From Octopus vulgaris (lineage: Eukaryota): a stretch of DNA of 64,000 nt. This document shows, one piece after another, positions 10,943 through 61,240 of this stretch; the first letter of the stretch is position 1, and the number at the start of each line of letters is the position of its first letter. Where the stretch lies: positions 15,190,001-15,254,000 of the forward strand of contig OX597836.1 of assembly GCA_951406725.2 (NCBI GenBank). The letters are read 5' to 3'. Under the pieces are notes generated by a model. It was not told the origin of the DNA and made no database searches. It saw nothing but the letters and a program-made list of their open reading frames with translations. The position numbers and the translations under genes are program-made.

Positions 10943-11248
10943 GTGCCAGTGACACATAATAAGGACCCATGCCAGTGACACACAAAAGGTGCCCGTGCCG
11001 GTGACACACAAAAGGTGCCCGTGCCGGTGACACACAAAAGGTGCCCGTGCCGGTGACACACAAAAGGTGCCCATGCCAGTGACACACAAAAGGTGCCCGT
11101 GCCGGTGACAGATAAAAGGTACCTGTGCCGGTGACACGTAAAAGGTACCCGTGCCAGTGACACGTAAAAGGTACCCATTCCGGTGACACGTAAAAGGTAA
11201 CCGTGCCAGTGACACATAAAAGGTACCCATGCAAGTGATACGTAAAAA
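10943..11248 (+). repeat. 26-bp minisatellite, about 11 units (gcccgtgccggtgacacacaaaaggt)
   Basis: Direct tandem units at the 5' end of a (GAT)n-tail element; explains the repetitive ORFs at 10854-11352. Confidence 0.9.
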
Positions 11249-12428
11249 GCACCCACTACACTCTTAGAGTGGTTGGCATTAGGAAAGGCATCCAGCTGTA
11301 GAAACCAAGGCAAAATCAGATGAGCCTGGTACGGCTTACCAGTTTCTGTCAAACCGTCAAACCCATGCCAGAATGGGAAACGGACACTAAATGATGACGA
11401 TGAAGCAAGTCAATTACACTGACACTGGTGTGCTCATTTTATCGATCTTGAAAGGATGAAAGGCTAAGTCAGACATTAGCAGAATTTGAACTCATAATGC
11501 AAAGTGCCAGAAGAAATTCCACTGAGCATTTTGTCCGACGAACTCACAGATCTGCCAGTTCACTGCTTTCCCCACTTTTATAACAAGAGATTGTTTAACC
11601 CTTTTAGCATTTAAAATGGTCATAGCCAGAATAACGATCCAAAATAACCTCTTTAGAAGGGGTTCTCAACCACTTTTTTATCAGTGGTATATGGTGGTTG
11701 TTGTATTGAATATGCTGCCACACTCAAAGCCACCAAATTTCAAGCAGGGGCATAACAAAAGTTTTCCATTAAGATTTGTGGTTAAATTAATGAGTAAGAG
11801 TAATATTTATAATGAATCTGACATTTCTGACAGGTGTGCAGCGCACACCTGGAATATATGCCCTTGTTTTTTTATCTATGGACCCCTTTGATTATTATTT
11901 TATTCTGGTGGACCCCTATAACCATTTGATGATTAGAAAATAGTTTTATAGAAACTAAGGTGGCGAGCTGGCAAGATCGTTAGCACACCGGGTGAAATGC
12001 TTAGTGGTATTTCGTCTGCTGTTACATTCTGAGTTCAAATTCCGCCGAGGTCGACTTTGCCTTTCATCCTTTCGGGGTCGATTAAATAAGTACCAGTTAG
12101 ACACTGGGATCGATATAATCGACTTAATCCATTTGTCTGTCCTTGTTTGTCCCCTCTGTGTTTAGCCCCTTGTGGGTAGTAAAGAAATAGGTATTTCGCC
12201 TGCCGCTACGTTCTGAGTTCAAATTTCGCCGAGGTCAACTTTGCCTTTCATCCTTTCGGGGTCGATTAAATAAGTACCAGTTACGCACTGGGATCGATAT
12301 AATCGACTTAATCTGTTTGTCTGTCCTTGTTTGTCCCCTCTGTGTTTAGCCCCTTGTGAGCAATAAAGAAATATATAAACTAATTTTATAGAAACTTCTT
12401 TTAAAATTCCTATTTTGCTTTCCACACA

Positions 12429-14759: not shown

Positions 14760-16431
14760 CTAGAGAAGAGAGAACAAAGGAATTAGTGTAACTGGTAACA
14801 CTTCACTGATTAGGGAGCAAAAGGGACCAAAAAGAAAACCCATAAGTAATATTCCCTGTCCCATCTCATCGTCTTCGCCCACTATTCCTGGGAAAGCTGT
14901 GGGGTTAGAGTCCTCAGGCACTTCCTTCATAGGGTCCTATCAGAAGCAAGTGTGGCTAACTGAGGTTATGGTTATTATCCAACCATCTATCCCTAGGTAT
15001 TCAATCAGTCGTGGCCATAGAATCCTCAGGAACCTCCTCCATAGGGTCCTATCTGAAGTGACTGTCATTACACTTTTCTGTAGGGTTCCCAAGCATAACT
15101 ATCTGAGACGATGGATATTAGGCACCCATGACAGTGACACATAAAAGGCACCTGCTACACTCTTGGAGTGGTTGGCATTAGGAAAGGCATCCAGCTGTAG
15201 AAAACCGAGCCAAAATCAGATGAGCCTAGTACAGCTTTCCAGCTTACCAGTTCCAGTCAAACTGTCTAACCCTTGCCAGAATGGAAAACGGACACTAAAT
15301 GATGACGATGATCATCTCATTCTTATTTCTTTATCGCCCACAAGGGGCTAAACATAGAGGGGACAAACAAGGACAGACAAAGGGATTAAGTCAATTACAT
15401 CGACCCCAGTGCGTAACTGGTACTTAATTTATCGATCCCGAAAGGATGAAAGGCAATAAGTCGATTACATTGACCCCAGTGCATAACTGGTACTTAATTT
15501 ATCGATCCCGAAAGGATGAAAGGCAAAGTCGACCTCGGCGCAATTTGAACTCAGAATGTAAAGACAGACGAAATACCACTAAGCATTTTGCCCAGCATGC
15601 TAACGATTCTGCCAGCTCACCGCCTTCTCATTCTTGGTCTAACACTGGGTCTCTTGCTGGTTGGGTCAACTTGAAGAATCCATCTTGTGATTCTTCCTTG
15701 CAACATTCTAATCACATGTCAGTCACGCCAGAGCTGTGACTTTTCAATGCAGAGAAGTAGCAGCTCAACTAGTAGAGATACCCTGATCTCCAAGCTATGC
15801 ACACTGTCGATTAATGGTACCCTAGAGATTCTTCACAGGAATCCCATTTAAAGGGCTTCTATTCACAATCGTACAGATCTTAAACTACATTTAGCATACA
15901 ATTACAAACTGAGTCACTGCATTTTTGACAGGTGCCGGTGACACGTAAAAAGCACCATTCGAGTGCAGTCAATGCCAGTACCACCTGACTGGCTCCTGTG
16001 CTAATGGCACATAAAAAGCACCATTCAAGCGCGGTCGATGCCAGTGCCACCTGACTGGCTTCCATGCTGGTGGCACATAAAAAGCACCCACTACACTCCT
16101 TGAGTAGTCAGCATTAGGAACAGCATTCAGCTGTAGAAACACTGCCAGATCAAATTGGAGCCTGGTGCAGTCTCTCAAACTATCCAACCCATGCCAGCAT
16201 GGACAGCGAACATTAAACGATGATGATTGTCTATACAACTCAGTCAGACGAATATGAATGGGTCAGAAAAAAAAAAAGTCCTGAGGTTGATTTGTTTGGC
16301 AAAACCCTTCAAGGTGATGCCCCAGCATGGCCACAGTCAAATGGCTGAAACAAGTAAGAGATAAAAGATCAAAACAGCGAACATTTGGAGATGCCAGTAA
16401 TTAATCTTATGAACACATTGTGATTACTCAC

Positions 16432-28249: not shown

Positions 28250-28800
28250 AACAAGGACAGACAAACGGATTAAGTCGATTACATCGACCCCAGTGCGTAA
28301 CTGGTACTTAATTTATCGACCCCGAAAGGATGAAAGGCAAAATCGACCTCGACGGAAATTGAACTCAGAACGTAGCAGCAGACAAAATACATATTTCTTT
28401 ACTACCCACAAGGGGCTAAACACAGTAGGGACAAACAAGGACAGACAAACGGATTAAGTCGATTACATGGACCCCAGTGCGTAACTGGTATTTAATTTAT
28501 TGACCCCGAAAGGATGAAAGGCAAAGTCGACCTCGACGGAAATTGAACTCAGAACGTAGCGGCAGACAAAATACATATTTCTTTACTACCCACAAGGGGC
28601 TAAACACAGTAGGGACAAACAAGGACAGACAAACGGATTAAGTCGATTACATCGACCCTAGTGCGTAACTGGTACTTAATTTATTGACCCCGAAAGGATG
28701 AAAGGCAAAGTCGACCTCGGCGGAAATTGAACTCAGAACGTAACGGCAGACGAAATACGGCTACGCATTTTGTCCGGCGTGCTAACGGTTCTGCCAGCTC
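28250..28800 (-). mobile_element. SINE family B, tandem trimer (other arrays 11958-12370, 45817-46500, 47333-47746, 52800-53315; singles 6940-7168, 15324-15625, 17461-17692, 29862-30078, 34466-34697, 39167-39400, 48279-48507, 51127-51358, 62665-62894)
   Basis: Head ggcggcgagctggcagaa with B-box-like gagttcaaattcc; about 184-nt tandem unit. Confidence 0.85.
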
Positions 28801-34000: not shown

Positions 34001-35167
34001 TTATTCATGCATTATTGGGATTTTTGATGACATGAGTATTTATTTTTATAATGACATTGTAGGATATGTACAAGAGACCAGATCTGGCTGGTTTGAACAT
34101 AAAACAGGTAGAATAATTAGGCTGGATATGACTGGTTTAAACACTAAAGGGTTAACCCTTTTCTTACCATATACTGGCATTAGAAAGGGCATCCAGCCAT
34201 AGAAACCATGCCAAAACAAACAGGGACCCGAACAGCCCTTCAGCTGGTTGGTTCCTGTCAAACTGTCCAGCCCCTGCTAGGTAAAATGCTTAGCTGCATT
34301 TCAACCTGTCTTTACTTTTAATTTAATTCAAATTAGGGTGAGGCTGACTGCTTTTCATCCTTTCGAGGTTGATAAATTAAGTACCAGTGAAACACTGGGG
34401 TCAATGGGATTAACTAGTCCCTCTCCCTTCAAATATAGTAGAAAGGATTATTAAGGATTATTAAAGGCGGTGAGCTGGCAGAAACGTTAGCACGCCGGGC
34501 AAAATGCTTAGCAGTATTTCGTCTGCCGCTACGTTCTGAGTTCAAATTCCGTCAAGGTCAACTTTGCCTTTCATCCTTTCGGGGTTGATAAATTAAGTAC
34601 CAGTTACGCACTAGGGTCGATATAATCGACTTAATTCTTTTGTCTGTCCTAGTTTGTCCCTTCTGTCTTTAGCCCCTTGTGGGCAGTAAAGAAATAAGAA
34701 AGGATTATTAAGCTGGTGTTTAAGGCAGTGAGCTGGTAAAATTGTTTCTGGACCCAACAAAATGCTTAGCATTATTTCTTCTAACTTTATATTCTGAGTT
34801 CAAATGCTGCTAAGGTTGACTCTACCTTTCATATTTTTGGGGTCAATAAAATAAGTATGAGTTCAGCACTGGGGTTGCTGTAATCAACTAAGCCCTTCCC
34901 TGAAATTGCTGGCCTTGTGCCAAAATTTGAAACCATTATTAAGCTGGTGTTTGGAACATAAATTAACATGAAATTTTTAAGAAAGGTTTTAATTTAGATT
35001 TATCTAAAATAGGAAATTTATATTTTTGACTGTGGCCATGCTGGAACACTGCCTTTTAGTCTAAGATACTGACCCCTAGAGTTATTCTTTGTGAGCCTGG
35101 TAGTTATACTATTGGCACCTTTTGTCAAACAGTTAAGTTACGCCTATGAAATTTTCAGCCCACCCTT

Positions 35168-35216
<49 letters not shown>

Positions 35217-35765
35217 TATATATATATCAATATGTATATATACACATATATGTATATCTATATATACATGTATATATATGTAGGTCCCGGGTTGAGTCGG
35301 GGTTAACCACAGTAAATAAGGTACTCAATACATAGCAGAGTAAATTAATTTATTTTATAGAAGGAGCTTCTACAGGACCAGAACTGTTTCATTCATATAT
35401 ACATATATGTATATATATGTATATATATATGTATATGTATGTGTACGTATGTATATATATATGTATGTATATGTGGGTATGTATGTATATGTATAGATAT
35501 ATGTGAATATGCGGGTGTGTATATGTGTATATATATATATGTAGATGTACAAGTGAGAGTCTCCCCACTTACCTAAAACTCTATTTTTCTATTTATATAT
35601 TTTTTTATTCTTTTATTTATTCTTTTATCTACTTTACCACTGATTCCTTTGACCACTTCCCTAATAATGACAGTTTTGCGCCATGCCTACCCCCAAAAAA
35701 GTCCCCCACCACCACCCATTTAAACCTGCCTAAATGTATAAATGCCAAAACAACTCTTGTCTACT

Positions 35766-35816
35766 AGCTTCCTGATGATTTCTTTTGAATGAAACAGTTC
35801 TGGTCCTGTAGAAGCT
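35766..35816 (+). ncRNA. Type I hammerhead ribozyme, canonical core
   Basis: AGCTTC-CTGATGA-tTTCttttGAAt-GAAA-CAG(ttctggtc)CTG-TA-GAAGCT. Stem I 6 bp, stem II 3 bp, stem III 4 bp, GUA cleavage triplet. Confidence 0.85.
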
Positions 35817-35828
35817 CCTCTATAAAAT

Positions 35829-35877
<49 letters not shown>

Positions 35878-36216
35878 TGTATACATATGTATAGATATAT
35901 ATATGTGTGTATGTGTATATATGTGTACGTGTGTGTGTGTGTGTGTGTGCAATTACGAATGAATGTATGTTTCAAGAAAGCCTATTTTTTGTCTCGTGGA
36001 TCACCAGGAGTTGGCGTCAAGAAAATGCCATGTGATGATATGCCATTATAATTACCATTATGCAACAACAATTATGAAATTAGACACTGACATATATACT
36101 TAGGGAATTTTGGGATATTCACACACTCACACATATATTTGTCTGAAATGAGATTTTTCACCCCTCACACCAATTTCACTGTACTCTTTCTGTGTGCATG
36201 AATGTATGTATGTATA

Positions 36217-36268
<52 letters not shown>

Positions 36269-36472
36269 ATCCAAACAAGAAAACACAAAAAAACACAACA
36301 ACGTGAGGACGTGGAACAAATATAGTATTATTGGACACTCAGGAAAGAAGGGAAGAAGGAGGGTTTAACGTTTCGAGCGGGGAAAGATCCAGAGAAGGGA
36401 AGACAGAGGAAAAAAATCGCCAACGCTACACACGAGGTCACATATATAAATATGTATATATATATATATATG

Positions 36473-36549: not shown

Positions 36550-36601
<52 letters not shown>

Positions 36602-36825
36602 TTATCTATAAATAAGGATAACATACTGGCCACTTGATAAGATCGATATTTAAATATTGATATTATCCTTATTTATAAATTTATATAGTTCGTCATCGTA
36701 TTCACTGCGGTGTTTATTTTGATCATATCGCGCTTGGAGATGTTTGGCGGGCAATTTAAGCCACTCTAGTACATACGTCATATATATGTATGTATGAGTG
36801 TTCGTATATGTAAGTATAATGTATG

Positions 36826-36861
<36 letters not shown>

Positions 36862-36876
36862 GTGCTTATCTGGTAT

Positions 36877-36935
36877 ATTCAACTGAAGAAGGCAGAGCTT
36901 CTCTGAAGCAAAGCCAGAAATCCAGGATCTTGAAT
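36877..36935 (+). ncRNA. Type I hammerhead ribozyme with quasi-palindromic stem III (dimer type)
   Basis: ATTCAA-CTGAAGA-aGGC...GCCa-GAAA-TCCAGGA-TC-TTGAAT. Stem I is a perfect 6 bp; AUC triplet. Confidence 0.8.
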
Positions 36936-38343
36936 TATCCAGTAAAATCTTTTTTGCTAGTTTATTTTGTTTCTCTGTCTTCTCGTCTGGTGCGATATGA
37001 ACATTTAAGGTGGTTTTAGGATCAGGGTTTTGACTGCTACTTCAGTATGGTGGTATCTCTCAGATACCCTAATTTATAGTTTTATATATATATATATATC
37101 TGTGGCAAAGGCTGACTTGGAAACAAGGGCATGCAGTCTATGATGCAGGCCAATCATCAAGACAAAGTGAGTGGGACAGTGCACTCTTACTCTCTCCACC
37201 CTTAAACAATTTTTGTTCTTCCCCCACCACCTCTGTCTGTGAAAGTGATGTGAAATAATTTTAATGTGAGAAAATACACTTCTACAAACCAGCCACACTT
37301 TGGGCTTGATGCCTCTCTCCACTGGACTTGATGGTCCTCCATTAGTCTGCCATGATGACTTTTATTGGTTACGAGAGAAATCAGAGAAAATAATAGAACC
37401 TACATATAAAGAGCTACCGTAAATCCTCGAGTATAATCTGCACTTTTTTCCCAAAATTTAAAGGGCAAAATCCTTAGTGCGTACCAACATGCCGAGCAGG
37501 AACACGAGGTCTCACTCAACAACATAGAAGTTAAAATCTTGTCCACACATAGAACAGACGCAACGCTTAGACAAATTACAGAAACTACACACATAATAGA
37601 AGATAAACCTAGCCTGAATAGGAAACTGGGATGGAACACTAGCACACACCACAGCATATGACAGAAGTAGATACCCATAAACTGGTAACAATATAAACAA
37701 AACTAAAAACAATAAAATACACAGATAGATAAACAAATGGAAGTAAATAACTATATACATTAAAAATAATAATAATAATAATAAAAAAATAATAATAAGT
37801 AGGTGTAAACACATGAACAAAATAAAAATAAACAAAAACAAATTACACGAACATATATAAACAGGAGATACAAATATTACAGACACTCCCCCCCACACAC
37901 ACACACACACTAACTAAACATAGACACACATAGAGGTATACACATGCGCAAATGGAGACACATACAATAGGAATACAAAATGGTTGACCGTCAGTAAGGA
38001 GAGACACACAAATAAGAAGGAAGAAAGCAAAGGACCACTGATGAGGTCACAGGCGTGTGATGAAAGAACTTTGGCCGAAATAAGATTAAGATTAATGTAA
38101 AAAATAAATAACGCTGAAGCAAAATAACACTAAATATATAGTGTGTGTGTTTTTATTGGCTAAATTGGCACAATGACCATTCCTAAATACAACGATAAAA
38201 TATTACAGAGATGTACTTGCATAGCAAGTGATTTGATCTGAGATCGTGTGCTGAAACGAAAACAATTGCAACGTGGAAGGTGTTTGTAAGCCATTTAAGA
38301 AACACACAAAAGCCGTTCATTTCACTTCAACATTTAAGTTTAA

Positions 38344-42465: not shown

Positions 42466-42505
<40 letters not shown>

Positions 42506-42566
42506 AATTTTTTGCGTAATGAGATAAAAAACCAAGGCTGTGTAGATATTTGAACATTTATAGATA

Positions 42567-42619
42567 GGTCTTACAGCTGTTTCCAGGATATTAATTAATT
42601 ATATCTCTTCATCGGAGCC
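42567..42619 (-). ncRNA. Hammerhead motif with GAAAC-AGCT-GTA palindromic stem III
   Basis: Reverse complement reads ggct-CCGATGA-agaGATAT(aattaatta)ATATCctg-GAAAC-AGCT-GTA-agacc. Confidence 0.6.
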
Positions 42620-43002
42620 GGTGTGAGAGGATGGTTAAGTAATAGTTAATTTAGATAGGATACAAAATAGAGAGTGAGGCGGAGGAAAGAAAATAGATGT
42701 AAGATATGTAGGGATATTGAATTTGTAGATCCATTTTTTAGGCAGAATAGTATATATTTAAGATTCCAATAACTTATGAATAAAATCCAACAGAATTTAA
42801 AATGGGTCGACCGCTCGAAACGTTAAACCCTCCTTCTTCCCTTCCTTCCTGAGCGTCCAATAATACTATATTTGTTCCACGTCCTCGCATTGTTGCGTTT
42901 TCTCTTTGTGTTTTCATGTTTGGATTAACTATGACCTCATGTGTACCGTTGGCGATTTTTTTTTCCTCTGTCTTCCCTTCTCTGGATCTTTCCTTCTCCT
43001 AT

Positions 43003-43037
43003 GTTTCCGCCGAAGAGCTCTGCTCGAAACGTTAAAC
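43003..43037 (+). ncRNA. Minimal Penelope-type hammerhead motif (core mutated to CCGCCGA)
   Basis: GTTT-CCGCCGA-aGAGC(tct)GCTC-GAA-ACGT-T-AAAC. The 3' half is repeated at 42811-42828. Confidence 0.6.
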
Positions 43038-46000
43038 CCTCCTTCTTTCCTTAGCATCTAATAATACTATATTTGTTCCAAGTCCTCGCATTGTTGTGTT
43101 TTTTTGTGCTTTCTTGTTTGGATTAACTTTATATATATATATATATATACACACATATATGAGTGTATGTATGAGTAAATGTTATGTACACTGTGTGTAC
43201 CTATGATTTTCTTATATGGGAATTTTTCTCTCTTTCTCTGGACACACACAAATACACATTGATGTGGATTAAAGATAATTAAAATTCTTATAAACAAGGA
43301 AAAAACATTTAGAAATATGTGATATCAGAATTCTTCCAAAATTATATATTTGACCTTTAACCTTCAGCCATTGACATGGGTGGGGTATTTTTCCTTTTTT
43401 TTTGCTTTTTTTTAAAATTTTTTCTTTCATCATCTTTGTGTGATTCATTGAATTACTGGCAGCTTCAGAACTGGTGTGTCCCTTAGGACTGAGACCACTC
43501 CTTTGGAAGCAATAGGGGGAGCTATAAGACATTTTCATTTCCTCTCTCTCATAAACATGCACACATGTCACAATCATATTCCTTCAGCCTTCAACCACTT
43601 TTGTCCCTCACTTCAGCATACAAGCACCTCCACTTAACTCACCCACTCACTCACCTCCATCTCCATTAACACCATCTTCAACCACAACATGTATCAGATC
43701 CCATCTGCCTCAATCCCCCACCACCACTACAAACCCTCTTCTACTCACACCCTTCCACCTGTTGCTCAGTTGAACCCAAAGTATCCTTCCTCACCCACTC
43801 CTATATTCTAACCAGTCAATGAGTGCATATGTGTATGTGTATACAAATATTCTTTTACTTGATTCAGATATTTCACTGAGGCCATACTGGAGCACTTCCC
43901 TGAAGAATTTTAGTCAAAGAAATTGACCCCATTACTTTTTTTACTTTTTTTATTTTTTAAGCCTGCTATTTATTATATCAATCTCTTTAACTGAATCACT
44001 AAGTTGCAGGGACATAAACACAGACACAAAGACACACATACATAGATAAATTATAGATATATAATTGATATAGGATAAAATTTTTTCGGGAAAAAATTTT
44101 TATCAATGGCCAGCATATCAAAAAATGCCTTTAAAGGTAAAATTTATACATAATTTACAAGATAAGGGCCTTATCTGCCCTTATCTTGTAAATTATATAT
44201 ATATTATATTAATATTAGGGAAGTTATTTCCGAGTTCACAGGGGAGAGAAGTTCAATTTTGTGGTAGTAAATTGAGTTACTCACTGTATTATATACATAT
44301 ATATAGATAGGTTTAAGAGACAGAATCACCCTCAAGCAACTCAATCATCATTGAATGACATTATCCACAATAGGTACATATAGGACTAAATATTAAAATT
44401 TACCAAAATCAATACCTACAATTCTTATTACAAATTATCAAAATTAATACCTTCAATTCTTATTTCAAATCATATACTTTACTACACGTGTTTCATGACA
44501 ACATATTCTTCGATATTGCTGAAATAGAATGTCTCTAAATACAACACCATATTAAAACGATTATATGTATGTGTATATATATGTATGTGTGTGTGTATGT
44601 TTGTGTGTCTGTGTTTGTCCCCCTAGCATTGCTTGACAACCAATGCTGGTGTGTTTATGTCCCCGTCACTTAGCGGTTCGGCAAAAGAGACCGATAGAAT
44701 AAGTACTGGGCTTACAAAGAATAAGTCCCGGGGTCGATTTGCTCGACTAAAGGTGGTGCTCCAGCATGGCCGCAGTCAAATGACTGAAACAATTAAAAGA
44801 GTAAAGAGTATATATATATAAAATACAAAAAGGGGACAAAAACACAAAACATCCAGACAGGTGATACAAAAAAGGGACAACAAAACATCCAGACAGACGA
44901 TACAAGGAAAACAAGGACGGATCGTTCGGAGTTTTCTTTCCTCAGTCGATTTCCAGATTATCTTTGCAATTTTGGCTGGTTAATATATATATGTATACAC
45001 ACACAAACACACACACACACACACATGTATGTCCGTACACATGCTTAATATATTTACTTTCACTTTTAAATAAGAACTGGGTTTACAAAGAGATTTGTTT
45101 GTTTCTATTTGGCAGTTCAATATATGTATGAAAAAAAGAGGTAGAATTTATTCAAATTTTTGGAATTATAAAACAAAAGTTGTAGAGGAAGAATAAAGCT
45201 GCAAATAATAATAATAATAATAAAATAAATAAATAAACCACAAAAAAATATTTTTTTCATGTTAGTTCAAATAATACTGGAGATGACTGAATGGGGAAAA
45301 GGAAAAAAAACAAAACAAGTTTATTTCACAACCTAACATATGTATATATTTACACACACACACACACACACCAATACATATTCTGCACAAAAGAACCAAA
45401 CTTAAACAACAAACTTTGAAGTGAAAGGTAGGTTGAGAAGCCTATATAGGTAGATGGATGATAGAGGGTGGCAAGCTACAGGAGTTAGGTTCCACTCCCA
45501 CCCGGCTCCTCCCCTGTCTCATTCACCCAGTTATCCTTCTATTCCTGCATCACATTCCATCTGCTTCTTATTGCTTTTACTCTGTGGCATTTCTCATTCT
45601 GGTATCATTTTTCTCTTTCATTTATTTCTTATTTTACTGGGGGTTTTTTTTTTTTGTTTTGTTTTGGCATGTTTTTTTTTTTTTTTGCTTTCTTTTACTT
45701 CCTGTATTGTGAAATTCAGAGATTCCCTCTTGGCTGCCTGCTGTGTGAAGTAGACATTGACAAACAAACACAGATAACACAACAACTAACTATAGCTGTG
45801 TAGGCTTTGTAACTGTAGGTATTTCATCTGTCCTATGTTCTGAGTTCAAATTCCACTGAGGTTGACTTTGCCTTTCATCCTTTCAGGGTCAATTAAATAA
45901 GTACCAGTTATGCACTTGGGTTGATATAATCAACTTAGTCAGTTTGTCTGTCCTTGTTTGTCCCTTCTGTGTTTAGCCCTTTGTGGGTAGTAAAGAAATA

Positions 46001-48587
46001 GGTATTTTGTCTGCCGCTACGTTCTGAGTTCAAATTCCACTGAGGTCGACTTTGCCTTTCATCCTTTCAGGGTTGATTAAATTGTACCAGTTATGCACTG
46101 AGGTCAATATAATCGACTTAGTCGTTTGTCTGTCCTTGTTTGTCCCTTCTATGTTTAGCCCGTTGTGGGTAGTAAAGAAATAGGTCTTTTCCTTTTGATG
46201 GACGGAATTTTCTAGTTAACTAAAAAATTTGAAACTTCGTATACTGGTAGAATGTGTCAAAAGAAAACATTATTGTAAACAAAATTGTAATTTGTAAGTT
46301 TAACATCATTTAATTCTACGAATTTTAACCATTTTGTCTGCCATTACGTTTTGAGTTCAAATTCCACCGAGGTCAACTTTGCCTTTCATCCTTTCAGGGT
46401 CAATTAAATAAGTACCAGTTACGCACTGAGGTCGAATAATCAACTTAATCTGTTTGTATGTCCTTTCTGTGTTTAGCCCCATGTGGGTAGTAAAGAAATA
46501 GGTTTCAGGGTCAGGAATAAAAGAAGAATCAGATGTAGTGTGCAAGAAAGAAGACTTCAAATGATATGAACATATGATGTGTATGGTTGAGGAATTGCTG
46601 CATAAAGAATTACTAATTACTTATCCCTTTCGTTACCATATTTCTGTTGAAATTCATTGCCTTTCACCACCATCATCATCATTTAACATCCATTGTCCAT
46701 GCTGGCATGGGTTGGACAGTTTGACCAGAGCTGCTACATTCTGAGTTAAAAGAATTCTGCTGCTACGTTCTGCGTTCAAATTCCGCCAAGGTCAACTTTG
46801 CCTTCCATCCTTTCGGGGTCGATTTAATAAGTACCAGTTACACACTGAGATCGATATAATCGACTTAATCCGTTTGTCTGTCCTTGCTTGTCCCCTCTAT
46901 GTTTAGCTCCTTGTGGGCAATAAAGGAATAAGTTTGACCAGGGCTGATAAGCTGAGTGGCTGCACCAGACTCCAGTCTAATTTGGCATGGTTTCTACAGC
47001 TGGATGTCCTTCCTAATGCCAACCACTCCAAGAGTGTAATGGATGATTTTTTGCGCCACTGGCACCGGTGCCAGTTGCATGACTATAGTATCTACTGAGA
47101 CTATGATTTCACTTGGCTTGATGGGTCTTCTACTCAAGTACAGCATATTGCCAAAGGTCTTGGTTGTTTGTCATTGCCTCATGAGGCCCAATGCTCAAAA
47201 GGTGCTTTTTTACATACCTCCAGCACGGGTGCTAGTTACACAATCCTGGCATCGCCCACATTGCCTCCACGAGACTCAATTTTGAAAATAATGACTAATT
47301 TAGTAAAATAGCTTTGTCATTGTTATTAAGCTGGTGGCGAGCTGGCAGAAATGTTAGCACGCAGGGTGAAATGCTTAGCGGTATTTCGTCTGCCATTACG
47401 TTCTGAGTTCAAATTCCACCAAGGTCGACTTTGCCTTTCATCCTTTCGGGGTCGAAAAATAAGGTACCAGTTTTACACTAGGGTTGATGTAATCGACTTA
47501 ATCCCTTTGTCTGTCCTTGTTTGTCCCCCCTATGTTTAGCCCCTTGTGGGCAGTAAAGAAATAGGTATTTTGTCTGTCGTTACATTCCAAGTTCAAATTC
47601 TGCCGAGGTCGACTTTGCCTTTCATCCTTTCGGGGTCGAAAAATAAGGTACCAGTTTCACACTGGGGTCGATGTAATCGACTTAATCCCTTTGTCTGTCC
47701 TTGTTTGTCCCCACTATGTTTAGCCCCTTGTGGGCAGTAAAGAAATATATTAAGCTGGTGTTTGGAACATAAATTAATGTTAAATTTGATCGAAGGTATT
47801 GTACTCAAGAGGAGCTGTCCGCCACATCAGAAGTGTTAAGGCCGCACCCTCTCATGCAGAGGGTTGGCCTGCAAGAGTCCTGCATCAGTGTCACATAAAA
47901 AGCGCTCATGCCAGTGCCATGTTAAGGGCACCCAGCACACACTGTAAAGTGGTTGGCATTAGGAAGGGCATCCAGCCATAGAAAACCAAGCCAAATCAGG
48001 CTGGAGCTTGATGCAGCTTCCCAGCTTACCAGTTCTGGTCTAACTGTCCAACTCATGCCAGCATGGAAAACCCTAAAGGATGATGATGATGATGATGATG
48101 ATCACTGTAATCATTTAGCATTTAGATTACTTTGTCAAATGTAATGTTTGTAGGCGTAGGAGTGGCTGTGTGGTAAGTAGCTTGCTTACCAACCACATGG
48201 TTCCGGGTTCAGTCCCACTGTGTGGCACCTTGGGCAAGTGTCTACTACTGAGAAGGGAATATGTTGAATAAATTTAACCGGCGAGCTGGCAGAATCGTTA
48301 GCACCCCGGGCGAAATGCGTAGCCGTATTTCGTCTGTCGTTACGTTCCGAGTTGAAATTCCGCCGAGGTCGACTTTGCCTTTCATCCTTTCGGGGTCGAT
48401 AAATTAAGAACCAGTTACGCACTGGGGTCGATGTAATCGACTTAATCCGTTTGTCTGTCCTTGTTTGTCCCCTCTGTGTTTAGCCCCTTGTGGGTAGTAA
48501 AGAAATAAATATGTTGAATAAAATCATAATTAACTGGTTCTCCTGTATTTTCTTTTACCCAAAAGCCGGAACTTTTCAGCACCTCCT

Positions 48588-51529: not shown

Positions 51530-53500
51530 AAAGCAATTAAGGATATGAAAATAGGGAAAGTCCCTGGCCCATCAGGAATCTCCACAGTGATGTTTGAAAT
51601 ATCTGGCAAAGTGAGATTTGGCCTCGTTACATGTATAGTTAATCCGGTTGTCCATGAGGAAGTCATACCCAACAACTGGTATAGCAGTCAACTGCTACAA
51701 AGGTAAAGGTGACACCTTATACAGAAATAATTACAAAGGTATCAAATTGCTGAACCACACCATGAAAGTTACAGAAAGGATCATAGCTCGATTAATTAGG
51801 AAGAGAGTTAGCCCACATGAGATGCAGTTTGATTTTATGCCAAGAACAAGCACTACCGATGCTGTCTTCCTGGTGAGGCAACTGTAGGAGAAGTATTTAA
51901 CCAAAAATGGATCTCTGTACTTGGCTTTTATTGACATTGAGAAAGCCTTTGACAGGATTTCCCACTCCCTTAACCCTTTTGTTACCAGCCCAGCTGAAAC
52001 CAGCTCTAGCTCTGAATACAAATGTTTTGTTTTCATAAGTTTTGAATTAAAATCTTCCATCAAACCTTAGTCACAATTTATGTTCCTAACACTAGCTTAA
52101 CCCTTTTGTTACTGTATTTATTTTGAGATGTTCTGTGTTTCTTTCAATTACTTTAAATATAACAAAATATTTAGTAAAATAACTTAGTTATCATTAAGCT
52201 AGTGTTAGGAACATAAATTGTGACTAAGGTTTGGTAGAAGATTTTAATTCAAAACTTATGTAAACAAGACATTTGTACTCAGAGCCAGAGCCAGTTTCAG
52301 CCGGGTTGGTAACGAAAGGGTTAATGATAACTAAGTTATTTTACAAAATTCTTTGTTATATTTAAAGTAATTGAAAGAAACACAGAGCATCTCAAAATAA
52401 ATACAGTAATGAAAGGGTTAACTAGTGAGAAATGTGGAATCTAGATAGGTGAGTTGTTGGTGAGAGCTATACAAGCCATGTACAAGGATGCGGTCAGTAA
52501 GGTGAAAGTTAGCAATGAATATAATGAATTTAGTGTACAGCAATGAATTTAGTGTTCACTAAGGACCAGTTCTTAGGCTCCTCTTGTTTAACACAGTCCT
52601 CCAGACCACAACTGGTATGCCCTTGGGTGCTCCTCAGTGCCAGTGCCCCGCAACCATTTGTCACTTGATGTACACTTATATTCTTTACAAAATCCGATGG
52701 CACACCCAAACAGAAAATACAATTAAAAGTATAAGGGGGAAAAATTATATCCAGGTTACACTGCGGCACACCTAGCATTGTCCCATGTGCTGTGGCATAC
52801 CTATTTCTTTACTACCCACAAGGGGCTAAACACAGAGGGGGACAAACAAGGACAGACAAATGGATTAAGTTGATTACATCGACCCCAGTGCGTAACTGGT
52901 ACTGATTTAATCGACCCCGAAAGGATGAAAGACAAAGTCGACCTCGGCGGAATTTGAACTCAGAACATAACGGCAGACGAAATACCTATTTCTTTACTAC
53001 CCACAAGGGGCTAAACATAGAGGGGGCAAACAAGGACAGACAAACGGATTAAGTCAATAACATCGACCCCAGTGCATAACTGGTACTTATTTAATTGACC
53101 CCGAAAGGATGAAAGGCAAAGTCGACCTCGGCGGAATTTGAACTCAGAACATAACGGCAGACGAAATACCTATTTCTTTACTACCCACAAGGGCTAAACA
53201 CAGAGGGGACAAACAAGGACAGACAAATGGATTAAGTCGATTACATCGACCCCAGTGCATAACTGGTACTTATTTAATCGACCCCGAAAGGATGAAAGGC
53301 AAAGTCGACCTTGGCCCAGTTGCAGAGCACTACTCTATGCTGCTGACTTTGTTCTTATTGCTGAATCACTAACAGAATGAGAGAAGAAATTTCAGGTGTG
53401 GAAGCAGGGTCTGGAATCAAAGGGTCTTAGAGTAAATTTAGCAAATACCAAAGTCCTAGTGAGTAGGAAGATGGTCCTGTTCTATATGTAGAAAAGGTGT
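51530..53500 (+). pseudogene. Decayed RTE-clade LINE reverse transcriptase, interrupted by nested MITEs and a SINE array
   Basis: KGKGD..NYKGIKLLNHTMKV..QFDFMP..STTDAVF..AFIDIEKAFD (51660-51960), then LYAADFVLIAES..GLRVNLANTKVL (about 53333-53465), with stops and frameshifts. Confidence 0.85.
51970..52421. mobile_element. TTAA MITE with an inverted copy of itself nested at an internal TTAA (52097-52324)
   Basis: The outer element is split at actagc-TTAA-tgataac; the inner copy is flanked by TTAA on both sides. Confidence 0.8.
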
Positions 53501-57274: not shown

Positions 57275-57850
57275 CTAAGAGCCTCCTCTAATATGTGGCA
57301 CTTGGTGAAGCATGAAGTTTGATATAGCTACCCTCATTTGCACCTCTTGCCGTGAGGTAGGTTCATCTGGGACTCTTGACAGGAAGAGGGCCAGCTTTGA
57401 TTTAAAAACCCCTACATCTACTTTGTGCAAGTTCCTCAGACTCTTTGGGAGAATATTAAAAAGCAGTGGGCCCTTGAAACCCAGGCTGTTGCAGTAACTG
57501 GTCCTGAAGCATGATGGCATTGCTGGGACCTTTGGCACTATGCAGTGTCGTCCTGTTCTGGCATTGGTGTAGCTTTCAATGCCAAAATTTGGCACAATTC
57601 CTTCCAGGATCTTCCAGATATATATTACTGCATACCTCTCCCGTCTTCTCTCCAGGGAGTAGAGTCTTAACTGTGTCAACCTTTCCCAGTAGCTGAGCTG
57701 TTCCAAAAAGACGATCTTTGCAAATCTTCTCTGGATTGCTTCAAGGTCCGCTGTTAATTTCACACTGGTGGGTGAGTAGTAATCCAGGCGGCTGAGGATG
57801 AATGGCCACCAGAGGACCATCATGGTTTCCTTATCTCTGGTTCTGAATGT
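57275..57850 (-). pseudogene. CR1/L2-group LINE ORF2 C-terminal fragment
   Basis: LSRLDYYSP..LEAIQRRF..LSYWERLTQLRLYSLERRRER..FNILPKSLR..FKSKL, typical of the CR1/L2 post-RT region. Confidence 0.8.
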
Positions 57851-58279
57851 CAAACTCAGAGCAGTGAGTCTGACATCACAGTAGCTTACAGCAGTGAAGC
57901 TTCCACCATCATGATTTTCTTGACCACATCCACCTTTCCCTGAAGAGAACAAACTTGTCTGCATCATTTGTTATGATCAGACACATTCACATTAGAATGA
58001 ATAGTTGATCCACTGACATCAGACTTACGGTCCAGAGCAGGACACTGAAGCAGGATTCCGGGACACTGGTGTCAATGAATCAAATGTGTTATTAGCACAT
58101 ATTTCTCAGAAAGGAAAGGTTGTTCTCTTCTGATGTACACAACAGTAATTAGCATATTTTGCATTTGAATCTCCTGGAACATACTACGAATAAATATGTG
58201 AGTCATCATATTTCGTCATCATCATCATCATTTAACATCCGTTTTCCGTGCTAGCACGGGTTGGATGGTTCGACTGGGG

Positions 58280-60774: not shown

Positions 60775-61071
60775 CATACATACATATATATATTTTGTTT
60801 ATTCATTACTGTTTTCAATTTCGTTTTCGTCTCTTGTATTTACATCCGTCTTGTGCGTTCACATTCCTGTCTTCTACCAAGAAATCTAACGCTTACAGCT
60901 TAGTTTTTTTTCTTGGGGCTGGCCGAGTTGGAGTAAATATCAGAATTGAACAGCCGAAATTTGCTATGATGATTCGGTGTCTGACTGAAGATTGAAGGCT
61001 TCGAATGATTTGTCTGTGTTCCGTGTTCGTCCCTTCCTGTATTTCACGTTCATTATATATAAAAACATTTA

Positions 61072-61118
<47 letters not shown>

Positions 61119-61124
<6 letters not shown>

Positions 61125-61240
61125 GAAAGAATGGAGTTGAACGACGAATTAACAAAATTCCTTTATTTTATTTTATTTTATTTGAAAATAAAATAAAAGA
61201 ATTTTGTTAATTCGTCGTTCAACTCCATTCTTTCATTTAT
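61119..61240. repeat. Near-perfect palindrome, about 55-bp arms
   Basis: ataaatgaaagaatggagttgaacgacgaattaacaaaattc versus gaattttgttaattcgtcgttcaactccattctttcatttat. Confidence 0.95.

Follow-up and report, generated by a model that had tools for sequence, protein, structure and literature searches.

Penelope-like elements (PLEs) insert as 5'-truncated copies, often with an inverted truncated copy and a tail on one side only, and their insertions are biased toward microsatellites (PMC8557442). Published inverted copies are described as "immediately adjacent" and the tails as 30-40 bp long, and the origin of both structures is listed as unresolved (PMC8557442). A preference for (TA)n was given in 26 of 27 table rows of the Hydra clade, and the element Penelope-13_HM carries an inverted 5'-truncated copy with its own hammerhead ribozyme (HHR) (PMC8557442). 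In D. virilis, Penelope most commonly has inverted terminal repeats (PMC2377424). In Schistosoma mansoni pairs of hammerheads on opposite strands, 100-700 bp apart, derive from truncated PLEs (PMC4209133). The Anolis PLE is the sole purified PLE system; its protein nicks AT-rich DNA on both strands and extends the nicked ends from two internal sites on the RNA, which set the tail. Insertion there did not depend on HHR cleavage, which itself needed protein (PMC11167929). Giant squid has 235 annotated hammerhead loci (PMC6962438), and octopus has both Hydra and Naiad PLEs.

The DNA analyzed here, hereafter the window, is a stretch of 64,000 nt from Octopus vulgaris (contig OX597836.1, positions 15,190,001 to 15,254,000) with a GC content of 32-45% and an abundance of microsatellites, dispersed repeats and tandem units of 184 bp. 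Positions 35280-35826 form a 547-bp unit of two back-to-back partial copies inside a TA microsatellite. The 5' ends of the copies face one another and the 3' ends point outward, which is the arrangement of 5'-truncated tandem or inverted copies by which PLEs are recognized. We consider it probable that the unit is a single non-coding insertion of rather recent date, derived from the 3' end (pseudo-LTR) of an endonuclease-positive PLE, most likely of the Hydra clade, in a (CA)n(TA)n(TG)n tract.

The right copy (~35550-35826, plus strand; 5' boundary approximate) is truncated at its 5' end and consists of 3'-UTR-like sequence, a T-rich tract and a hammerhead. Its short 3' end reaches 16 nt (16-19) beyond the cleavage site. 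The inverted 5'-truncated copy, or arm, lies at 35351-35395 on the minus strand and is identical to 35786-35829 in 44 of 45 alignment columns (E 2.8e-15), with a single 1-nt indel and no substitution in 44 nt. The two matching segments are separated by 390 nt. For another family in the window, the copies of which are 84-92% identical, 44 nt without a substitution would have a probability of 0.03 to 0.0008. The arm holds the 3' strand of helix II, the GAAA box, helix III, the cleavage triplet and the 3' strand of helix I, and lacks the CUGANGA box. It continues into a 3' extension, the tail (35280-35350, minus strand), of 71 nt (71-74 nt), which the right copy lacks; no second match to it was found in the window, and it is presumably PLE-derived. 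Between the 5' ends of the copies lies a microsatellite spacer (35396-35549) of TA/TG tandem repeats, 154 nt in length. The spacer and the long tail are departures from the published PLE pattern. The spacer shares 16-19 nt with the flanks as against 12-25 nt with other tracts, and being no closer to the former than to the latter it gives no support to a derivation from the flanks; it could be donor flank, filler or later expansion. The initial annotation had reported the hammerhead with an inverted partial copy upstream, embedded in (TA)n. Both the copy and the embedding were confirmed, as the two copies lie in TA/TG/CA tracts. The extent given for the unit was right for arm and ribozyme and left out the tail, the rest of the right copy and the 18-bp repeat at its flanks.

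All six reading frames of the right copy are interrupted by stops, and the frames overlapping it had no Pfam match. The window has 228 non-low-complexity frames of at least 62 aa; the 150 longest were compared with Pfam without a match, and no PLE ORF was seen. The absence of such an ORF (reverse transcriptase and GIY-YIG) from the 547-bp unit is expected for a 5'-truncated copy. Elsewhere, 57278-57970 (minus strand) encodes a 231-aa fragment of the C-terminal region of a non-LTR (LINE) reverse transcriptase protein with 79 relatives. These carry PF00078 and endonuclease domains, and the best named among them, the two with a name above 55% identity, come from Argonauta hians and are 58-62% identical to the fragment, which points to a probable octopod host. 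At 14870-15030 (minus strand), outside the frames scanned with Pfam, two similar short stretches read as a repeated acidic peptide and are possibly a coding exon or pseudogene fragment. A scan for bacterial promoters and terminators, unsuited to an animal genome, gave no hits.

PLEs leave target-site duplications of variable length in AT-rich or (TA)n targets, and the candidate found here is 18 bp long. The same 18-mer occurs at 35262-35279, as a near-palindromic interruption of the TA tract, and at 35827-35844, where its first 3 nt also match the element; this overlap is a possible priming microhomology. The 18-mer occurs twice in the window, at both outer junctions of the unit with zero slack; a check of 2188 positions in other tracts did not find it. 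The ends of 40 tracts give 6240 ordered pairs, of which 18 reached at least 18 nt with at least 2 C/G; two of these are the pair described here, leaving 16 of 6238 for the others. With the left flank fixed none of 72 pairs reached 18 nt, and with the right flank fixed one of 72 did. When pure TA matches are counted too, 686 of the 6240 tract pairs reach at least 18 nt. The flanking tracts (35166-35282 and 35836-35952) are 82% complementary over 117 nt, so that the target before insertion was a (CA)n(TA)n(TG)n tract, quasi-palindromic and with its centre close to the duplicated 18-mer. We regard the repeat as a candidate target-site duplication of a single insertion.

Two copies could also result if one young PLE family had inserted twice, independently and in opposite orientation, into a single microsatellite. 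The spacer would then be original target, which it resembles in looking like ordinary genomic microsatellite, and the 18-bp repeat a coincidence. Recent activity is documented in O. vulgaris, with 336 recently active PLE insertions (PMC13282606), and the TA tracts of the window gather hammerhead-like fragments in both orientations, as at 42505-43130, where two different families lie head-to-head. However, the 18-mer is exact, unique and fitted to the unit as a whole, whereas either copy alone is surrounded by a direct repeat of 5-7 nt only. The arms are also near-identical, and the 64-kb window contains no further copy of the element. Two insertions are therefore unlikely. The Penelope-like inverted arrangement proposed initially is supported by the candidate duplication, the tail and the Hydra-clade features of the ribozyme.

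A single insertion of this kind could arise as follows. The GIY-YIG endonuclease of the element would nick both strands about 18 nt apart, the distance suggested by the 18-bp repeat. Each nicked 3' end would then prime reverse transcription on element RNA, a step modelled on the Anolis system (PMC11167929), at one site 16-19 nt and at another ~91 nt past the cleavage site. With two such priming sites both 3' ends would face outward and one copy would carry a tail. Both cDNAs would stop early and become joined via microsatellite sequence. The hammerhead would travel as a passenger of the pseudo-LTR which, judged by computed folds, would be weak as a monomer and built for dimer action. A search by title and abstract found no literature on twin priming in PLE insertion.

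Taken as it is, the unit adds one more to the many remnants of PLEs found in TA tracts and is of little importance, and an inverted arrangement with a hammerhead has already been described for Penelope-like elements. Since target-site duplications are often indiscernible for PLEs that target microsatellites (PMC8557442), a readable 18-bp repeat together with two different 3' ends and an inverted partner is nevertheless a useful data point on the inverted structures and tails.

The type I hammerhead motif was located at 35766-35816 (plus strand) by descriptor scan and fold computation. Helix I consists of 6 Watson-Crick pairs (35766-35771 with 35811-35816). The C3-A9 box (CUGANGA) occupies 35772-35778, G12-A14 of the GAAA box 35791-35793, and A15.1-U16.1 is 35794/35809. 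Helix III has 4 bp and a quasi-palindromic 8-nt loop. The cleavage triplet is GUA with A35810 as H17, so the cut is predicted after 35810. All 13 invariant core nucleotides are present, and the motif thus has the type I core of CUGANGA, GAAA, A15.1-U16.1 and H17. Helices of 6, 3 and 4 bp are able to form around it (-7.3 kcal/mol, joint probability at most 0.05). A strict descriptor, which combined both boxes with at least 6 Watson-Crick pairs in helix I and at least 4 in helix III, had one match in the window and none in 200 dinucleotide shuffles, while a relaxed descriptor was matched in 11 of 200 shuffles. The coordinates, core nucleotides, stems I to III and GUA site first annotated were thereby upheld.

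The same annotation had called the hammerhead canonical, which proved incorrect. Canonical HHRs typically have G10.1-C11.1 (PMC4209133) and a helix II of 4 bp, whereas positions 10.1 and 11.1 are U·U here (35779 and 35790) and helix II is therefore only 3 bp. The suggested comparison to Rfam Hammerhead_1 was also negative: the hammerhead families of Rfam gave no match at the gathering score across the whole window, nor at E<=10 when 1001 nt or 131 nt were searched. Other Rfam matches were microsatellite-driven miRNA models and weak C/D snoRNA matches (best E 0.63), which we dismissed as chance. The motif is a real hammerhead-type sequence, and a non-canonical one.

The probability of the three-helix active fold was 0.05 for the 51-mer by itself, 0.011 when 10-nt flanks were added and 0.0016 for the right copy as a whole. 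It is a minority of the ensemble, and the fold z-scores were -0.19 and 0.28. Helix III together with its loop can pair with itself (-11.2 kcal/mol). For a pair of 51-mers the double hammerhead was the most favourable structure (-23.6 kcal/mol vs 2 x -7.6); when the flanks were longer, a different dimer structure came out best. The ribozyme is thus probably weak by itself and suited to dimer action, as far as the folding model goes. Lünse et al. reportedly found that small PLE hammerheads cleave as dimers. The axolotl retrozyme ribozyme HHR_Amex2, which likewise has U·U at the base of helix II, showed 22% monomer cleavage in 1 h and more as a dimer (PMC7229834). U·U under helix II was listed in 14 of 25 families in the Hydra-clade HHR table, of which 11 are from one species and two rows are identical (PMC8557442). 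A reading of the U·U as decay was dropped, since it is common among Hydra-clade HHRs and present in HHR_Amex2; it is probably a family trait.

The Hydra-clade PLEs (PMC8557442) resemble the unit in a type I HHR near the 3' end, in U·U and a short helix II (3 bp with a 4-nt loop in Penelope-9_HM) and in a 4-bp helix III, which is the same as that of 35766-35816 in 4 of 25 families. They also share the (TA)n target, the inverted 5'-truncated copy and a hairpin 30-50 nt past the cleavage site. In contrast, their loop III has 1-3 nt as against 8 nt here, and the octopus unit has no ORF and has microsatellite between its copies. Its HHR sequence differs from that of Hydra-1_Obim, so the unit belongs to another family. 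None of 8 family-specific motifs occurs in the octopus entries of the PMC8557442 supplement; in searches of that supplement six motifs, and two others, had no match, and one 10-nt motif had 2 matches, in the coding stretch of another element and in the HHR of Hydra-1_Amil. Two exact-pattern scans of GTDB contigs found no related copies, which says little because that collection is prokaryotic. HHR architecture, target and tail hairpin agree with the Hydra clade, of which the unit is a putative member.

The tail hairpin lies at 35321-35342 (minus strand) with a 5-bp outer stem (35322-35342). The outer stem was predicted and the likeness to Hydra-clade elements judged by eye; the tail fold has z = -0.77, and the inner stem is weak and was not predicted. 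We described the motif as NCTC, an inner stem-loop, a 2-nt bulge, GAGN and AC, a descriptor made post hoc from these sequences. It has one match in the window, inside the tail and 30 nt past the cleavage site, and was matched in 31 of 200 whole-window shuffles and in 2 of 20000 tail shuffles. By eye a similar motif, adjacent to the hammerhead or to the ORF start, is found in 3 of 6 Hydra-clade consensus sequences of the PMC8557442 supplement: ~40 nt past the cleavage site in Hydra-2_Amil and Hydra-2_Ajap, and at the start of the consensus in Hydra-1_Ajap. Hydra-1_Crog has a near match, and the motif was not seen by eye in Hydra-1_Amil or Hydra-1_Obim, the given consensus sequences of which end short. 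The outer pair of the tail hairpin is A-U where the Hydra-clade motif has G-C. A literature search found no description of such a Hydra-clade hairpin. We take the resemblance as a lead, not as proof. On a bolder reading, the unit records with unusual clarity how an octopod family of Hydra-like PLEs, so far undescribed, primed on two strands, and the bulged hairpin between the short and long 3' ends is a Hydra-clade cis-element, conserved in corals, sea cucumbers and octopods, that binds the reverse transcriptase or positions internal starts; this we find doubtful. If the hairpin is conserved, it would offer a concrete RNA element for the existing in vitro PLE assay.

D. virilis Penelope and Anolis Poseidon (PAc) are alike in their inverted terminal repeats of variable size, optional tail, target-site duplication, AT-rich target and priming on both strands (PMC2377424, PMC3681739, PMC11167929). 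They differ in being coding elements with tails of 30-40 bp. The PAc ORF begins within the HHR, whereas in the octopus unit the frame from a nearby ATG closes after a few codons. With minimal and variant PLE hammerheads, among them the opposite-strand pairs of Schistosoma mansoni, the unit shares opposite-strand dual motifs, a palindromic helix III/loop 3, predicted dimer action and low expected activity. Those hammerheads have a helix II of 7-8 bp, a helix I of 4-5 bp and G10.1-C11.1 (PMC4209133); unlike them, the unit has a helix I of 6 bp and a helix II of 3 bp with U·U, and its second motif is just a 3' half.

Non-LTR retrozymes are non-coding, as is the unit, and have a type I HHR, which in the axolotl HHR_Amex2 shares the U·U at the base of helix II (PMC7229834; bioRxiv 10.64898/2026.07.22.740005). 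They have been proposed to be PLE derivatives (bioRxiv 10.64898/2026.07.22.740005), and a helix I of 6 bp is in keeping with canonical metazoan type I HHRs (PMC4209133). The unit could accordingly be a truncated non-LTR retrozyme, or another non-autonomous PLE derivative mobilized in trans. Retrozymes, however, form head-to-tail tandems that give rise to circular RNAs, and their definition requires a tandem array in which two or more successive units each hold a complete type I HHR (bioRxiv 10.64898/2026.07.22.740005). No such array of 170-400-nt monomers was found here; the arrangement is head-to-head with a tail and one complete ribozyme, and the tail hairpin resembles consensus sequences of autonomous Hydra-clade elements. 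We consider this origin quite unlikely and keep to the 3' end of an autonomous PLE, probably of the Hydra clade.

It had also been suggested that the antisense arm pairs with the ribozyme and switches it off in a read-through transcript. The pairing is supported thermodynamically by the computation. The arm duplex (-73 kcal/mol, ~44 bp) covers the GAAA box, helix III and the cleavage site, and in plus-strand read-through RNA the arm pairs with a probability of 0.98, while the ribozyme fold falls from ~0.002 to ~1e-30. A functional switch is not supported: the block would be permanent, as the duplex leaves no alternative state and the arm is transcribed first, and the ribozyme fold is already rare without the arm. 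The Pfam scan of frames gave no sign of a transcript, ORF or host gene. As noted for the purified Anolis system, HHR cleavage is dispensable for insertion and protein-dependent (PMC11167929), and the documented outcome of Penelope inverted repeats is the production of siRNAs (PMC3681739). No report of antisense control of PLE hammerheads was found by title and abstract. It is thus very improbable that the arm is a maintained off-switch for an active ribozyme. Nothing points to a switch; inverted copies are known as by-products when PLEs insert, the block would be a permanent by-product of this kind, and the duplex would more probably feed double-stranded-RNA pathways than act in regulation. 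A trans-acting ribozyme involving the minus-strand half was set aside on reasoning only, because the same transcript carries the full complement of that half.

A local inverted duplication at the DNA level, in which a template switch in the microsatellite copied part of an existing hammerhead remnant, would suit the near-identical arms and could be promoted by the quasi-palindromic flanks (82% complementary over 117 nt), but it is extremely unlikely, as the 71 nt next to the arm are absent beside the right copy and elsewhere in the window and a flanking direct repeat is not predicted.

The window contains further hammerhead-like and repeated sequences. A second family with hammerhead-like 3' halves is present as a partial tandem with ~209-nt spacing (42811-43130, plus strand) and as a single reverse copy (36266-36441, minus strand); its copies are 84-92% identical and end in TA tracts, and the core at ~43009 has C for U4. 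Head-to-head with the tandem and between TA tracts lies a degenerate hammerhead-like motif (42567-42619, minus strand); its helix III is a perfect palindrome and shares the 4-bp type of 35766-35816. Unique islands between TA tracts were found at 36598-36782, 36862-37080 and 60794-61053, two of them with CUGAAGA boxes (36883 and 60985); they are likely PLE remnants. A very relaxed HHR scan had 2 matches in the window against a mean of 0.73 in 30 shuffles, and the second match, at 36883, being within shuffle background, is therefore not established as a hammerhead. Directly 3' of a TA tract lies a 116-nt near-perfect palindrome (61122-61237; 91% by BLAST, -68 kcal/mol, z -19), followed by ~155 nt of unique sequence and another TA tract; it is possibly the fold-back end of another element.

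Arrays of a 182-184-bp unit, with 2-2.8 copies and in both orientations, were found at 12006-12373, 28250-28758, 45816-46190, 47380-47747 and 52797-53315, with more degenerate copies at ~34280-34900. The window also has SINE-like repeats, which may resemble octopus SINEs, and a 26-bp minisatellite (10943-11254) of 12 copies that are 88% matched.
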